From sequence record NC_042084.1: 44,829 nucleotides of DNA. One strand, given 5' to 3'. Shown here piece after piece: positions 4,323 to 44,819 of the stretch (within the stretch, counting starts at the first letter, position 1; every line of letters begins with the position of its first letter). Both the position numbers and the translations under genes were made by a program. The stretch is from Escherichia phage VB_EcoS-Golestan. The notes under the pieces are model-generated. The model searched no databases. It was not told where the DNA came from and was given only the letters and a program-made list of their open reading frames with translations.

Positions 4323-4350
4323 GAGGCCCCGAAAGGGGCTTTATTTTTAT
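4323..4350 (+). terminator. Rho-independent terminator
   Basis: AGGCCCC-GAAA-GGGGCT hairpin followed by TTATTTTTAT. Confidence 0.65.
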
Positions 4351-4857: not shown

Positions 4858-4884
4858 GACGGCCTCCTCGTTTCGATGTAATGA

Positions 4885-4913
4885 ATAGTACCCTATTATA
4901 TTGGTGTGTGCAA
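4885..4913 (-). promoter_or_regulatory. Family-1 promoter copy A (TTGCAC-N17-TACTAT) containing inverted repeat AATAG-N4-CTATT (4884-4897)
   Basis: About 35 bp near-identical to copies at 14121-14149, 37911-37939 and 39113-39141; lies just upstream of the lipoprotein cassette. Confidence 0.5.
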
Positions 4914-4979
4914 ACTATTTATTTACGTATTCCAGTTATTCCACTCAATTGTAAATGTTGGAATAAACTATTCGAATAG

Positions 4980-5008
4980 TTGACTTTTCACTAAAAATGT
5001 GCTAAGCT
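4980..5008 (+). promoter_or_regulatory. Sigma70-type promoter TTGACT-N17-TAAGCT with extended -10 TG; its -35 overlaps the perfect palindrome ACTATTCGAATAGT (4967-4980)
   Basis: Near-identical promoter at 37602-37630; both followed by the same transcribed leader. Confidence 0.6.
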
Positions 5009-5011
5009 CCA

Positions 5012-5063
5012 CCTGAGCTTGTGAAGTATGAACAAGCGACCGCGGCGCGGGCAGGTAACGGAG
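5012..5063 (+). other. Conserved promoter-proximal leader element, copy 1 (candidate cis-acting RNA, pause/antitermination site or 5' end of a small RNA)
   Basis: 38-nt block CCTGAGCTTGTGAAGTATGAACAAGCGACCGCGGCGCG identical to 37634-37671; contains hairpin GCTTGT-N9-ACAAGC. Confidence 0.5.
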
Positions 5064-5189
5064 CGGGACGTAAGGTCCTGAGTGTAGTTACGCTGACGCG
5101 TTCGGAAGGGCCATACTCTATTGCTTGTGTAAAAAGTAACGGGTTTACTGAGATTACGCCGTTTCTATGTTTAAATGATAAGGACTAGC

Positions 5190-5216
5190 GCCCCGCTTTA
5201 AGGCGGGGCTTTACTT
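5190..5216 (+). terminator. Terminator-like hairpin about 200 nt downstream of the 4980 promoter and upstream of the spanin genes
   Basis: GCCCCGC-TTTAAG-GCGGGGC followed by TTTACTTATC (imperfect U-tract). Confidence 0.4.
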
Positions 5217-5233
5217 ATCGAGAAAGGGGAAAC

Positions 5234-5620
5234 ATGAATCTTAAAGCAACTGTCGTAGCAGGAGCATGTTTCATCATCCTGGCTTACGCCCACGGCATTT
5301 ACCAGTATCGCAGCGGCTGGAGCGAAGGCCGGGCGAATCTCGTTTCGCAGCAACAGCAGAAAGCGCAGGCTGAGTTAGCGAAGAAAACACAACGGCAGCA
5401 GCAGGACGAATCAAAGGCCGCCGCCGCCGACAACGAAGGCAAGACGAAATCAGAGGTGATTACCCGTGAAGTCGTTAAATACATTAAAACGCCAGGTCGC
5501 AGCGTGTGCACTTTTGACCCTGAGCGCGTGCAGCTCAAGTCCCGCGCCGTCGCCAACGCCAATTCCATCCCCGGATACGACGATGATGCAGCCGCCGTGC
5601 AAACTGGCGCAGCCAAGTAG
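5234..5620 (+). CDS. i-spanin (Rz-like inner-membrane spanin)
   Basis: 128 aa; N-terminal TM helix, Gln/Ala-rich coiled-coil periplasmic region; o-spanin-like lipoprotein ORF overlaps in another frame. Confidence 0.55.
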   Translation: MNLKATVVAGACFIILAYAHGIYQYRSGWSEGRANLVSQQQQKAQAELAKKTQRQQQDESKAAAADNEGKTKSEVITREVVKYIKTPGRSVCTFDPERVQLKSRAVANANSIPGYDDDAAAVQTGAAK

Positions 5621-12233: not shown

Positions 12234-12721
12234 TACTTATCACTCCCGTGTGATTTTAAGTGTGTAGAGTCCCCGTTACAGTCGTACTCAGTGACCGCGT
12301 GTGTCGTGATTCCTAAGCCACGGAAATGCTTAATCACCGCGGGAGAGTCGTCGAATGCGCACAAGATTCTTTCCAGTCCGAAAGCACGCAACACCTCTTC
12401 TTTAATTACGATGTCTTTTCTGTTGTCGTGTTTGCTGCGCATGATTAGCGTGTCAAACCTAACGTTATTCTCTCGTAACCATTCGCGAGTCTCCTCCTCA
12501 GCGTCATCACTTCGCCCGGTAAGGATAATTATAGTAAGTCCGGAATGCCACAGTACGCTACACAAATGGATATTGTCGTATATCGGAGCGTCATCTTTGC
12601 AGGCCATGTTAAATGGCTTCCACGCCCACGTTTCTCCGTAGTTATCTTTTGGTAACAGGTGTAAGCGATGGGTACCGTCGGCCAATGTCCCGTCTAAATC
12701 GAAAATTACAATATCTTTCAT
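12233..12721 (-). CDS. HAD-superfamily phosphatase (polynucleotide 3'-phosphatase / nucleotidase-like)
   Basis: 162 aa; HAD motifs FDLDGT (DxDGT), ILTGR, and DD (CAFDDS). Confidence 0.7.
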   Translation of the reverse strand: MKDIVIFDLDGTLADGTHRLHLLPKDNYGETWAWKPFNMACKDDAPIYDNIHLCSVLWHSGLTIIILTGRSDDAEEETREWLRENNVRFDTLIMRSKHDNRKDIVIKEEVLRAFGLERILCAFDDSPAVIKHFRGLGITTHAVTEYDCNGDSTHLKSHGSDK

Positions 12722-13848
12722 CCCAGCATCTCCGGTGAAATAGTTAAACGTGCGACCTCGCCATATTCGGCGCTATAAGTAATTACATTTGCACTGCGGC
12801 CCGACATCCATCCGCCGCGAGAGGCGTAGGCGTCTTTAGCCGCTAAGGTGCGGTGTTGCTCAACAATCATGTTACGGCTTTCTACAATCTTCTGGTGGTG
12901 CAGATGGCCTACGTGGGCGTAGCTGTAAACACTCTCGCCGAACGCTTTACGGAACTTGGCAATCATAACCGGTTCGATAGCGTCGAATCGTGCTTTATGC
13001 CCGTGATGGAAGAACAGCGTCGTTTTGCCGTGTTGCACCATCTTATAAACATCCGGCGACGTATCGACGAATACACGAGGCTCGTTGTCGTACAGTGTGC
13101 TGAACATCTCCGCCAGCCAAATCATCCCGGATTCGTCGTGGTTCCCCTGAACTATAAGCAAGCGAACAGTTTTATGCTTAACCAGAGCCATATCAACAAC
13201 ACGGCGGACCATGCGAATCATGTAGCGGACAAGTTTCTGGTAACGCGTGTCGGCGTCAAGGACATGACCACTCGCCGGTGTAACGGCGTCAAGACTATCG
13301 AAGTGAGCTAAGTCGCCAAGAAGATTAATAACCCCCGTACCTGCATCCGGTGCTTTCTGAAACGCAGCATCAAACCAACGAGAGAATAAGTCCTCCGCGA
13401 TTTTCATATCCCAGTCGTCGCCGCTCTCGTCAGCCCAGGCTAACATACCGAGATGGAAATCAGACACGGTGTACAGGTTAAGCAGCTTGTCGTCACGTTT
13501 AGCCCGGGCGGCCTTAACTGGCGGAACGGGAGTAATCTCCGACTTCATGCCTTCGACTACGGCTTTCATCAACTCAACCTGACGTTCGGCATCGGTGTCT
13601 GTCTTAACCCACTGCAACTTAGTGTTACCGAACTCGTCCACCAGAGACGACGTGCCTTTAATCTTGTAGCCGTCTGGTACAAGGTGGCTTACGTCCCGCC
13701 CGTGGCCTACGCCTTTCTTAGCCAGCTTCGCTTTACGGATTCGGATAACGCGGTCTGAGATTCCGTATTTACGGGCGATATCGATATTCTTCATCCCGGC
13801 GTTCAATTCTTCCTGTAATTGCTCGTCGGTTATTTTCTTCTGGGCCAT
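12718..13848 (-). CDS. HTH-containing calcineurin-like metallophosphoesterase (Mre11/SbcD-fold nuclease or phosphodiesterase candidate); start set at ATG 13848
   Basis: Metallophosphoesterase motifs DFH, GDLAHFD, GNHDE, HHGH, GHLHH; N-terminal HTH-like segment; RBS GAGGAAG before ATG 13848 (ORF-track start 13953 would overlap the next gene). Confidence 0.75.
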   Translation of the reverse strand: MAQKKITDEQLQEELNAGMKNIDIARKYGISDRVIRIRKAKLAKKGVGHGRDVSHLVPDGYKIKGTSSLVDEFGNTKLQWVKTDTDAERQVELMKAVVEGMKSEITPVPPVKAARAKRDDKLLNLYTVSDFHLGMLAWADESGDDWDMKIAEDLFSRWFDAAFQKAPDAGTGVINLLGDLAHFDSLDAVTPASGHVLDADTRYQKLVRYMIRMVRRVVDMALVKHKTVRLLIVQGNHDESGMIWLAEMFSTLYDNEPRVFVDTSPDVYKMVQHGKTTLFFHHGHKARFDAIEPVMIAKFRKAFGESVYSYAHVGHLHHQKIVESRNMIVEQHRTLAAKDAYASRGGWMSGRSANVITYSAEYGEVARLTISPEMLG

Positions 13849-14149: not shown

Positions 14150-14256
14150 GTAGTGTGCTAGAATAATTTTGCGCCTAGTGTCGCACACGAAAAGCGGGTG
14201 GTTCCCGTCTGGCGCATTTCCTTTAACCAGTAACCTCTTAACCAAAGGATTAAAGA

Positions 14257-14673
14257 ATGAAACTTTCTGATTTTTATTACGAAGCGGAAGCCGAAAAGGG
14301 CGCACGTATGCCGATACCGCTAAAAGACGGTACTGATTCCGGGGAATGGCTTAATGTTGTTTCTCCTGAGGCGGACGTTGCCGTTAAGGCTATGCGCGCG
14401 TTCACCCTTGCATACCGGGCAGTATTAGGGAAATTAAAACCGCTTCGTGATAAGTGCGAAGAGATGAAAGATTTCTCTGAATACAACCTGAAGATGGAAG
14501 ACGCGGCGACGGACCTTAACCGTCAGTTAGCGATTGAATTGGTTAACGGGTGGAGCCTTGACGACGAATTCAATAAAGAGAATCTGAACACACTCCTGAC
14601 GCAATATAAACGACTCGCGGAACTTGTTGTTGTGTTTCATAACGAACAACTGCACCAGCTACAGGAAAAGTAG
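14257..14673 (+). CDS. Tail assembly chaperone (gpG-like)
   Basis: 138 aa acidic protein immediately upstream of tape measure; downstream ORF in -1 frame. Confidence 0.5.
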   Translation: MKLSDFYYEAEAEKGARMPIPLKDGTDSGEWLNVVSPEADVAVKAMRAFTLAYRAVLGKLKPLRDKCEEMKDFSEYNLKMEDAATDLNRQLAIELVNGWSLDDEFNKENLNTLLTQYKRLAELVVVFHNEQLHQLQEK

Positions 14674-43507: not shown

Positions 43508-43678
43508 ATGTTCAGTGACATTAACGCGGCAATCGAAGAAGCAATCTGGCGTCGCTACAACGGCGAGCAACAACGGCATTTCTGCCTGGTGCAACGCGGT
43601 AACATGATTGCCGTAGTGCAGGACCGCGATAACAAATATCCGAATGCGATGTGGACAACGAGGAATTTTTTAGGATGA
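43508..43678 (+). CDS. Hypothetical small protein (56 aa)
   Basis: Hand-translated MFSDINAAIEEAIWRRYNGEQQRHFCLVQRGNMIAVVQDRDNKYPNAMWTTRNFLG; preceded by a 27-aa hydrophobic mini-ORF (43425-43508). Confidence 0.3.
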   Translation: MFSDINAAIEEAIWRRYNGEQQRHFCLVQRGNMIAVVQDRDNKYPNAMWTTRNFLG

Positions 43679-43911
43679 TTACCAGCATTCCGAACCTGAT
43701 TAAAGAATTCGGCACGATGGCCGAGACATGCCGGCAAACCGGCATCAACGAAATGACGATTGCGAAGTACAGCAAAGACGTTGATTGCGAGCGCCACGTA
43801 ATTTATAACAATCGTCTGATGACACATGTTAAGACAAGCCCGGTGTTATTCACGCGCCGAGGTATCACTAAAACTGAGCAACGCATTGCTAAAGGGGAGA
43901 GTGGGGAATGA
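43675..43911 (+). CDS. Hypothetical protein, possible HTH; start set at ATG 43675
   Basis: ATGA coupling to 43508-43678; contains CRQTGINEMTIAKYSK. Confidence 0.4.
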   Translation: MITSIPNLIKEFGTMAETCRQTGINEMTIAKYSKDVDCERHVIYNNRLMTHVKTSPVLFTRRGITKTEQRIAKGESGE

Positions 43912-44090
43912 TTGAGATTTTGAGGGCTACGAATGTTGCTGGTGACCTGGTGTTTTGGCTGGCCTTTCTCGGTGTGCTGATAAAACAACCGACTCTGTTT
44001 AACAGTCTCCCTCGTTACCTGTGGTGGCCTATGTTTTTAGGCATGGGTGTATCAGGCGTGGCAGGCATCCTTTTGTGGTTTTTCAAATGA
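43908..44090 (+). CDS. Small membrane protein (two hydrophobic segments)
   Basis: 60 aa; LVFWLAFLGVLI and MFLGMGVSGVAGILLWFF segments. Confidence 0.4.
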   Translation: MIEILRATNVAGDLVFWLAFLGVLIKQPTLFNSLPRYLWWPMFLGMGVSGVAGILLWFFK

Positions 44091-44192: not shown

Positions 44193-44215
44193 AGCCCTCT
44201 ACGGAGGGCTTTTCT
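44193..44215 (+). terminator. Terminator-like hairpin upstream of the small terminase gene
   Basis: AGCCCTC-TACG-GAGGGCT followed by TTTC. Confidence 0.4.
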
Positions 44216-44309
44216 GTACATCCCGCCCAATCCCCTTATATAATCTATTTAGACGCGTAGGGCGCGTCTGGTGCGCTCTGATGGTCAGACGCATATGCAA
44301 GGGGATTCT

Positions 44310-44819
44310 ATGAAGCTGAAACTTAAGCAGCCATCGCCAGAGGTGGTGCAAGCTGCACATGAAGAAGCTGTTAGCGCAAACCGTCGCCGTAAACAACCGC
44401 GCGGTAAACAGAGCCTTTATCAATCATCCCGTAATTCCGCGGCGTTGTGGGACCCGGACTATTGCGACGAACTGATTCGTTTCTTCGACCGCACGTCATG
44501 GAAACTTGTGCCCACGTCCAAAGGTGACGAACGCCCGCTGATTCAGGATAAACCGCCATCACTGGCCCGCTTCGCCTTACACATCGGCGTCACTATCCCT
44601 ATTATTAAGCTTTGGCTGCGTGAGATTCCCGCATTTGCAGAAGCCTGGGAGACAGCACAGGCGCTGGAAGAGGCATACTTCACTGAAACGGGGGCCGCGG
44701 GCATCTCTGCTACGTTTGCTGCCGCGAAACTGGGCCTGAATAAAACAGTTGTCGCCGAAGAAGTACGCGACGAGCCAATCAGCGAAGTAACAATTAAGGT
44801 GGTGTCCGGTGAACGTTAA
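44310..44819 (+). CDS. Terminase small subunit; start set at ATG 44310
   Basis: 169 aa; RBS AAGGGGA; basic N-terminus; immediately precedes the window end where the large terminase would follow. Confidence 0.6.
   Translation: MKLKLKQPSPEVVQAAHEEAVSANRRRKQPRGKQSLYQSSRNSAALWDPDYCDELIRFFDRTSWKLVPTSKGDERPLIQDKPPSLARFALHIGVTIPIIKLWLREIPAFAEAWETAQALEEAYFTETGAAGISATFAAAKLGLNKTVVAEEVRDEPISEVTIKVVSGER

Follow-up and report, generated by a model that had tools for sequence, protein, structure and literature searches.

A conserved double-hairpin leader ahead of the small-terminase gene in Guernseyvirinae and Dhillonvirus phages: a candidate regulatory RNA of the packaging operon

What is the role of the inverted repeat that stands just ahead of the small-terminase gene (terS) in the genome of Escherichia phage VB_EcoS-Golestan (sequence record NC_042084.1)? 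The window analysed here is the whole 44,829 bp of that record; its sequence matches at 100% identity that of Escherichia phage vB_EcoS_SCS44 (complete genome, ON001686.1; Kagunavirus, Guernseyvirinae), and SCS44 is the name we use for the window phage in all comparisons. A preliminary description, made from the sequence alone, had suggested that the repeat might be either a terminase recognition element or a translational operator. Our analysis bears out the presence of a conserved control element in the 5′ region of terS. We favour a role at the RNA level, within which a translational operator is viable, because the pairing is kept by compensatory and G-U changes, the wobble bias is specific to one strand, bulges are tolerated, and the element begins where transcription from a conserved promoter is predicted to start. 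Tentatively, and with doubts that slightly outweigh our confidence, we propose that the repeat is hairpin 1 of a ~45-nt leader of two stem-loops at the 5′ end of the packaging mRNA, which would stabilise that mRNA or tune its expression.

The repeat and the signals around it

The repeat AGACGCG-TAGGG-CGCGTCT was found at 44251-44269, as the preliminary description had it, between a TATAAT element at 44239-44244 and the terS ATG at 44310. The further copy of AGACGC mentioned there also exists, at 44287-44292, one base away from the 44288-44293 originally given, and it forms the 3′ arm of a second hairpin that had been missed. The repeat falls in the last intergenic region of the record, in which the following features were recognised.

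44193-44215, + strand: terminator-like hairpin, AGCCCTC-TACG-GAGGGCT, then TTTTCT, from a reading of the sequence (perfect 7-bp stem at 44193).
44215-44244, + strand: sigma70-type promoter with a −35-like TGTACA (44215-44220), an 18-nt spacer and a −10 TATAAT (44239-44244), from a promoter scan (10/12 matches).
44251, + strand: predicted transcription start, an A 7 nt past the −10 hexamer, placed by the canonical spacing from −10 to +1.
44250-44270, + strand: predicted hairpin 1, UAGACGCGU-AGG-GCGCGUCUG, from folding and covariation.
44271-44294, + strand: predicted hairpin 2, GUGCG-C-UCUGA-UGG-UCAGA-CGCAU, from folding and compensatory changes.
44299-44305, + strand: Shine-Dalgarno (SD) sequence AAGGGGA, 4-5 nt 5′ of the ATG, from a reading of the sequence.
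44310-44819, + strand: terS, encoding the small terminase of 169 aa, with ATG 44310 as the most likely true start.

As RNA, hairpin 1 comprises nine pairs, with U·G at both ends beyond the 7-bp repeat, and an AGG triloop, while hairpin 2, which directly abuts it, has a bulged C44276 and a UGG triloop. The 46-nt element formed by the two hairpins has a predicted folding energy of −24.2 kcal/mol (z = −4.1), and none of 200 shuffled sequences folded as well. A single perfect 7-bp stem is in itself unremarkable and within chance; with loops of 3-8 nt allowed, 45 hairpins with such a stem occur in the window (17.4 ± 5.6 expected from first-order Markov simulations), and many of them are terminators. 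The significance of the element rests on its fold energy relative to shuffles, its fixed spacing to the promoter, and its covarying conservation in distant phages.

The hairpin at 44193-44215 closes a rightward operon that includes a NinH-like gene and a 60-aa open reading frame (43675-44090), and it overlaps the sigma70-type promoter. The equivalent site is annotated as "terminator" in Salmonella phage Shelanagig and in Dhillonvirus WFI, and a terminator hairpin with covarying stems occurs at this position in all lineages. Our terminator scan of the window did not return 44193-44215, probably through extension of the stem into the T run. The −10 sequence TA[T/C]AATC is invariant in all 24 of the aligned distinct sequences, the promoters of Dhillonvirus have an extended −10 (TGTTATAAT), and hairpin 1 begins ~5-9 nt past the −10 hexamer in every lineage. 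All lineages also have a purine-rich SD at the corresponding position (AGAGAGGA, ACAGGAGA, AAAAGGG). The idea that the leader is itself an intrinsic terminator or attenuator, i.e., a hairpin with a U tract directly behind it, could be rejected: no lineage has a U tract after hairpin 2, which is followed by AUAUGCAAGGGG, UUAAGAGAGG and similar sequences, and the true terminator is the separate hairpin at 44193-44215.

Conservation of the leader across phages

The loci compared were 49 from IMG/VR with close TerS relatives, GenBank phages across the range of TerS identity, and 52 further IMG/VR loci from an alignment search with divergent TerS. Every lineage examined has the same order of terminator, TA[T/C]AATC promoter, hairpin 1, hairpin 2, an SD 3-7 nt further on, and terS. 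This architecture is present in Kagunavirus, Jerseyvirus and the St162/TS6/FSL SP-031 type of Guernseyvirinae, as well as in Enterobacter phage phiEap-2, Pantoea phage AH01, Serratia phage Otaku, several uncultivated contigs and Dhillonvirus, which is a separate genus. The preliminary description had made conservation in related phages one touchstone of its idea, and the leader is clearly kept across both Guernseyvirinae and Dhillonvirus.

Among the lineages sharing the architecture, TerS falls to as little as 25-28% identity with that of SCS44, and the leader has 60-79% identity with that of SCS44. In the distant lineages, identity is ~50%, which amounts to alignment noise, both in the 100 nt lying further upstream and in the SD spacer and terS; in jerseyvirus, a close relative, the flanks are 62-89% identical to those of SCS44. 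On these comparisons, the leader is an island of conservation in the distant lineages and is better kept than the terS gene behind it.

What is kept is the pairing. The same two-hairpin fold was predicted independently in five of the six other lineages that were folded; in the sixth (IMG/VR locus L073) the fold is present, with an energy no better than that of shuffles (z = −0.8). When 17 distinct sequences were aligned with MAFFT, 99.3% of the cells were paired, compared with 20-54% when the 3′ partners were slid, and four pairs were altered on both sides. With 31 sequences aligned to the model, 97.4% of the cells were paired and 8 of the 18 pairs were altered on both sides, which was matched by none of 500 shuffles. 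The upper stem of hairpin 2 occurs as UCUGA/UCAGA, UAUGA/UCAUA, UUAUGA/UCAUAA, GCCGA/UCGGC and GUGUG/CACAC, and in one contig its lower stem is CCAG/CUGG instead of AUGCG/CGCAU. In Otaku, the stem of hairpin 1 is wholly replaced (AAAGGCC/GGCUUU) and the loop retained, and the stem sequence is likewise entirely replaced in L073 and L074. The bulged base of hairpin 2 is free to vary (C, U or A). The constant parts are the loop of hairpin 1 (UAGGG, CAGGG or CUGGG), in whose fold a Y-G pair closes an NGG triloop, and the apex of hairpin 2, G(A/G)-YGG-UC. Among the paired cells there are 57 G-U or U-G combinations and just 3 A-C or C-A combinations. Taken with the one-sided bulges, this wobble bias points to selection on the fold of the sense-strand RNA, rather than on a DNA palindrome or an antisense RNA.

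The covariance model of the leader, R1, was built solely from Kagunavirus, Jerseyvirus and St162-type sequences, so that the Dhillonvirus, Pantoea, Enterobacter and Serratia phages did not contribute to it. R1 finds exactly one copy in SCS44 (75.9 bits; the next best match scores 9.4) and one in a Dhillonvirus genome (E 0.02 genome-wide). Within the Dhillonvirus loci its best match is the terS leader (18.3 and 15.4 bits; E 0.0015-0.0064), and it also matches the terS leaders of phiEap-2 (59 bits), AH01 (27 bits) and Otaku (22.6 bits). Thirteen of the 14 IMG/VR loci with a TerS at least 45% identical to the St162 type are matched, and in the fourteenth, L073, the element is present by eye. No match to R1 was found upstream of more distant terS homologues. 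A scan of genome contigs returned just four loci, all distant and unrelated. The possibility that the leader is an operator repeated around the genome is rejected, as both motif and covariance model occur once per genome.

Five of the distant IMG/VR loci (L080-L084; TerS 34-37% identical to St162 TerS) lack the double hairpin. Some 60-100 nt upstream of terS they have a TATAAT promoter, then a terminator-like hairpin and U tract directly before the SD (e.g., GCGGATCGAAAGAGCCGC-TTTTTTATTT), an arrangement that looks like a different type of leader, with regulated termination.

No Rfam 15 family overlaps 44250-44294 at E ≤ 10, the nearest match being a fragment of rsmX (13.9 bits) on the upstream terminator hairpin. 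Searches with blastn of 5,426 complete E. coli genomes gave no match to the leader, and a host or prophage origin is rejected on that account. In a paper on the Kagunavirus transcriptome no transcription starts are listed and terminase goes unmentioned, and the leader is undescribed in Rfam and in the literature that we searched. The double-hairpin leader forms a new family within a well-known type of RNA, the structured 5′ leader.

What the leader may do

If the leader acts as a 5′ stabiliser or tuner of the packaging mRNA, host RNA polymerase would initiate at the conserved sigma70-type promoter, at about A44251 and just past the terminator of the upstream operon, and we infer from the sequence that the leader would form the 5′ terminus of the mRNA. 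The first 45 nt would fold co-transcriptionally into hairpins 1 and 2, with 0-3 unpaired nt left at the 5′ end, and the SD, 3-7 nt beyond hairpin 2, would remain single-stranded, being freed by hairpin 2 from upstream pairing. The base-paired 5′ terminus would then block RppH and the 5′-end-dependent entry of RNase E, thereby stabilising the ~5-kb packaging mRNA, and such protection would determine how much terminase is made. Both NGG triloops are conserved and could offer a host or phage factor a handle by which expression is tuned.

The stabilising effect is one that we infer by analogy. Stem-loops within ~4 nt of the 5′ end reportedly stabilise E. coli mRNAs, as Emory, Bouvet and Belasco are said to have found for ompA in 1992, and the T7 phi10 leader is a 5′-terminal stem-loop that stabilises its mRNA. 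Common to the SCS44 leader, the ompA 5′ untranslated region and the phi10 leader are one or two hairpins at the 5′ terminus (a predicted one in SCS44) of a sigma70 or phage transcript, no more than a few unpaired 5′ nt and an accessible ribosome-binding site; the ompA and phi10 stabilisers act in cis on a highly expressed mRNA. Counted from the predicted transcription start, hairpin 1 would begin within the ~4-nt limit of such stabilisers. However, known stabilisers act by structure alone and their sequence is not conserved, whereas the SCS44-type leader has conserved loops and a conserved apex.

Several observations weigh against the proposal. The loops (YAGGG, UGG) and the hairpin 2 apex (GA-UGG-UC) are kept even where the stems have been fully turned over, and because a pure 5′ stabiliser needs no particular sequence, stabilisation alone is insufficient. 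In kagunaviruses the −35 is weak (TGTACA, with its 18-nt spacer), so that initiation may depend on an activator. SCS44 has only replication, lysis and morphogenesis genes in common with a Dhillonvirus, and none of them is a candidate for a partner protein. Furthermore, the leader motif is absent from the other operons of SCS44, and a good fold is predicted for the antisense strand of the window copy as well, such that the choice of strand for SCS44 alone needs comparative data.

Given the conserved loop sequences, a trans-acting partner that reads both NGG triloops would be expected, and it might be a dimeric protein or RNA polymerase itself. The more ambitious proposal, that the leader represents a new family of compact phage regulatory RNAs whose NGG triloops dock on the transcribing host RNA polymerase (as a small device akin to the put RNA of phage HK022 but evolved independently) or on a dimeric phage or host protein, and which serve as an RNA-controlled switch of the packaging operon in virulent Guernseyvirinae and Dhillonvirus phages, appears to us doubtful.

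A translational operator, which overlaps with the leader reading that we favour, would have a phage protein (e.g., TerS in autogenous control) or an RNA-binding protein of the host, probably in dimeric form, bind the NGG triloops and repress or activate ribosome loading, thus timing terminase synthesis. We consider it viable but unlikely. The constancy of the loop and apex sequences while the stems covary is what such an operator should show, hairpin 2 ends 3-7 nt before the SD, and the −10 hexamer is a consensus one, so that timing might have to be post-transcriptional. There is a precedent in the SPP1 terminase, which represses its own synthesis, though on DNA (PMC6316719). Against this, no binding partner has been nominated, TerS diverges to 25-28% identity with the loops unchanged, and there is no conserved alternative fold that would sequester the SD. 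The two G-rich loops, with a third G-rich site at the SD, recall the leaders controlled by CsrA/RsmA and would suit a dimeric RNA-binding protein. CsrA/RsmA sites are, however, defined by a GGA core in hairpin loops, whereas hairpin 1 has AGG(G) and hairpin 2 UGG(U); no GGA motif occurs in the leader loops, and GGA is found in some SD regions only. Attenuation by pairing of the further AGACGC copy with the 3′ arm of hairpin 1 is rejected, as the copy reads AUACGC in jerseyviruses and is absent in dhillonviruses.

Another RNA-level possibility is a cis-acting antiterminator like the put RNA of phage HK022, in which the nascent double hairpin would dock on its own RNA polymerase and make it resist pausing and termination along the packaging operon. 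We regard such a mode of action as distinctly unlikely, a minority possibility suggested by analogy. HK022 put RNA acts in cis and binds RNA polymerase at the β′ zinc-binding domain, and the two stem-loops of its putL begin at position +3 of a transcript from a sigma70 promoter (PMC9378689). The location and gross shape of the leader are of the same kind as those of putL, as both consist of two stem-loops that begin (by prediction, in the leader) at +1 to +3 of a sigma70 transcript, the polymerase being that of the host and the phages enterobacterial; the two stem-loops at 44250-44294, just past a predicted sigma70 promoter, resemble put by shape and position only. HK022 putL begins AUAGACGAACGGCGCGUCU, and AGACG and GGCGCGUCU are common to it and hairpin 1 in the same register, amounting to 6 + 9 shared nucleotides when the preceding U is counted. 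SCS44 has a terminator-like hairpin inside the operon past the portal gene (2756-2771), on which an antiterminator could act, and a terminator-like hairpin lies between promoter and terS in the more distant terS loci, placing leader-level control of transcription in the neighbourhood.

These resemblances are outweighed by differences. The AGACG/CGUCU identity is specific to HK022, since five other put sequences have GUCG/CGAC, and the stems differ in the other members of the leader family. The leader lacks the invariant put core (UAAACCAUGCGUCGG, bulged U28 and the A9-G35 platform); it is a regular helix of ~45 nt, compared with ~72 nt with bulges, non-canonical pairs and a triplex in put, which serves the early operons of temperate lambdoid phages. 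No internal sense-strand terminator was found in the Dhillonvirus terS operon (locus L126, 27574-32584). Membership of the put family is rejected, as reciprocal covariance-model searches were negative: model R2, built from six put sequences with the family core CGAACGGCGCG...UAAACCAUGCGUCGG...GGCGGGYUCAGG, did not match the leader in the window (its best hit, 8.2 bits and E 2.9, lies elsewhere), and R1 had no match in the HK022 immunity region. A blastn search with putL returned 24 phage records, none of them from Guernseyvirinae or Dhillonvirus. The first helix of HK022 putL, UAGACG-AAC-GGCGCGUCU (L120, 6295-6313, − strand), with its 15 nt in register with hairpin 1, is a striking match, but probably coincidental.

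Three further signals of transcription control can be set aside. The leader shares with lambda nut boxB, and N-type systems in general, a short promoter-proximal hairpin with a small conserved loop of a sort that a small basic protein could recognise; it differs in having no boxA in the right order and in its NGG/YAGGG loops, unlike the GNRA-like pentaloops of boxB. No N-like gene is known in these phages. A lambda-type boxA (CGCUCU) in an arm of hairpin 2 is rejected, as it is not kept in jerseyviruses or dhillonviruses, and a sigma-dependent pause element (the −10-like TATGAT in hairpin 2) is likewise rejected, being confined to jerseyviruses.

Alternatively, the element might be read as DNA. 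The preliminary description had raised a terminase recognition site, i.e., a packaging initiation (pac) site, at which TerS would bind the duplex and start headful packaging, possibly with TerS autorepression as in SPP1. The precedent makes the idea reasonable: SPP1 pac overlaps the late promoter, the ribosome-binding site and the 5′ end of gene 1, and mediates terminase autorepression (PMC6316719). Moreover, these phages package by a headful mechanism with no pac site mapped in the group, the element is single-copy and adjoins terS, just as SPP1 pacL-pacC-pacR and the pac sites of P22 and P1 are found at, or inside, the 5′ portion of the gene for the small terminase, and conservation of loop and apex would be seen in a double-stranded DNA site as well. 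The known pac sites are, however, double-stranded DNA read by TerS, whereas the leader is conserved as strand-specific pairing with G-U wobbles. Its stems are kept by pairing and not by sequence, and the 57 to 3 ratio of G-U to A-C, with the one-sided bulges, means that the complementary strand, or a symmetric duplex, is not what is conserved. Nor did we find a double-stranded sequence that covaries with its TerS; the element stays constant (60-79% identity) while TerS diverges to 25-28%. In the literature on relatives, a jerseyvirus restriction digest lacks a submolar pac fragment and PhageTerm reports random ends. The pac reading of the element gains no support from our data, and we consider it improbable.

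Finally, an operator for a DNA-binding repressor or activator over the +1 of the terS promoter, or a chance palindrome without function, is very improbable: the perfect 19-bp palindrome does span +1 to +19 relative to the predicted start, helix-turn-helix proteins are among the products of the phage, and a single 7-bp inverted repeat is within chance expectation, but the strand asymmetry of G-U and A-C, the full replacement of the stem sequence in Otaku, L073 and L074, and the absence of the palindrome from any other promoter (whereas a different one, TGAATAGTAC-CTATTAT, recurs seven times, mostly between genes) speak against an operator, and the conservation island and covariation exclude chance for the whole element.

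The packaging operon and other elements of the window

The packaging operon runs from terS (to 44819) through terL (28-1251), the portal gene and a head-morphogenesis gene to one further gene, and ends at a terminator at 4323-4342; it thus spans the ends of the record, which are arbitrary. Between the portal and head-morphogenesis genes lies the weak candidate terminator noted above, a hairpin AGCCCCGAAAGGGGCT then TTCTTAT (2756-2771, + strand), with scant space for a new promoter.

The start of terS is annotated differently between records, at the GTG/ATG equivalent to 44271, at ATG 44295 or at ATG 44310. GenBank places it at 44295, and the longest open reading frame would begin at GTG 44271. 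ATG 44310-44312 is most likely the true start, as was also implied by the end coordinate in the preliminary description, and tblastn alignments of terS begin at its Met. An N-terminal coding extension of terS, or an upstream open reading frame, through hairpin 2 is rejected: between kagunaviruses and jerseyviruses, 6 of the 13 in-frame codons of 44271-44309 differ and every change is non-synonymous, while TerS is ~92% identical, and the frame upstream of ATG 44310 is interrupted by a stop in two phages, vB_STM-ZS and TS6, while in Dhillonvirus it is not in register. By this comparison, 44271-44309 is not coding. Many public records nevertheless open inside hairpin 2 (e.g., L007, L013, L017, L023, L047 and PQ850596.1), because annotators begin at an in-frame ATG/GTG, and linearisation there divides the leader RNA between the two ends of the record. 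Such boundaries are an annotation convention, and their interpretation as physical genome ends is rejected.

One of the best conserved proteins shared between SCS44 and Dhillonvirus is a metallophosphoesterase (window 12718-13848, − strand; L126 32694-33836, − strand), which is 75.5% identical to that of Dhillonvirus CEC_Kaz_2018. The Dhillonvirus gene adjoins, directly upstream, the terS terminator, promoter and leader, and the SCS44 copy sits in a reversed cassette beside a polynucleotide kinase gene.

Three other candidate regulatory elements were seen in the window. The first is a match to the Rfam int-alpA RNA (RF02996) at 14168-14232 on the + strand (36.6 bits; gathering score 35.8), which directly follows an extended −10 promoter (TGCTAGAAT, 14157-14165) and precedes a tail-assembly-chaperone gene at 14257. 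Like the terS leader, it is a promoter-proximal structured RNA that heads a morphogenesis operon of the same phage; it differs in having an outer stem that encloses two hairpins, then a U-rich tail, and the Rfam search at E ≤ 10 gave no int-alpA match at the terS leader. The second is the palindromic motif TGAATAGTAC(G/C)CTATTAT, of which seven mostly intergenic copies occur (4882 and 14118 on the + strand; 31239, 34132, 34176, 37925 and 39127 on the − strand), with 0.03 expected by chance. It fits the "phage promoter" consensus that PHIRE predicted for Kagunavirus fBC-Eco01 (PMC9825357) and probably acts as an operator or promoter element common to these sites; the terS promoter is without it. 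The third is a gene-free region of 375 bp (4858-5233, + strand) with a near-consensus promoter, TTGACT, 17 nt and TGCTAAGCT (4980-5008). Behind the promoter come ~200 nt of non-coding sequence, and a GC-rich hairpin at 5190-5209 directly precedes the SD that serves the gene at 5234. The whole region, for which Rfam gave no match at E ≤ 1, could be a long structured leader or a small RNA.

The Guernseyvirinae (Jersey-like and K1G-like phages) and Dhillonvirus are common in collections of Salmonella and E. coli phages for therapy and biocontrol. The in-frame ATG/GTG of hairpin 2 has led to many mis-annotated terS starts, and to linearisation of genomes inside the element. Its conservation exceeding that of terS itself, the leader is the most conserved non-coding sequence heading the packaging operon and would thus provide a mutable handle on terminase expression. 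If it is true that the conserved loops bind RNA polymerase or a protein, the leader would represent a new and very small class of cis-regulatory RNA.

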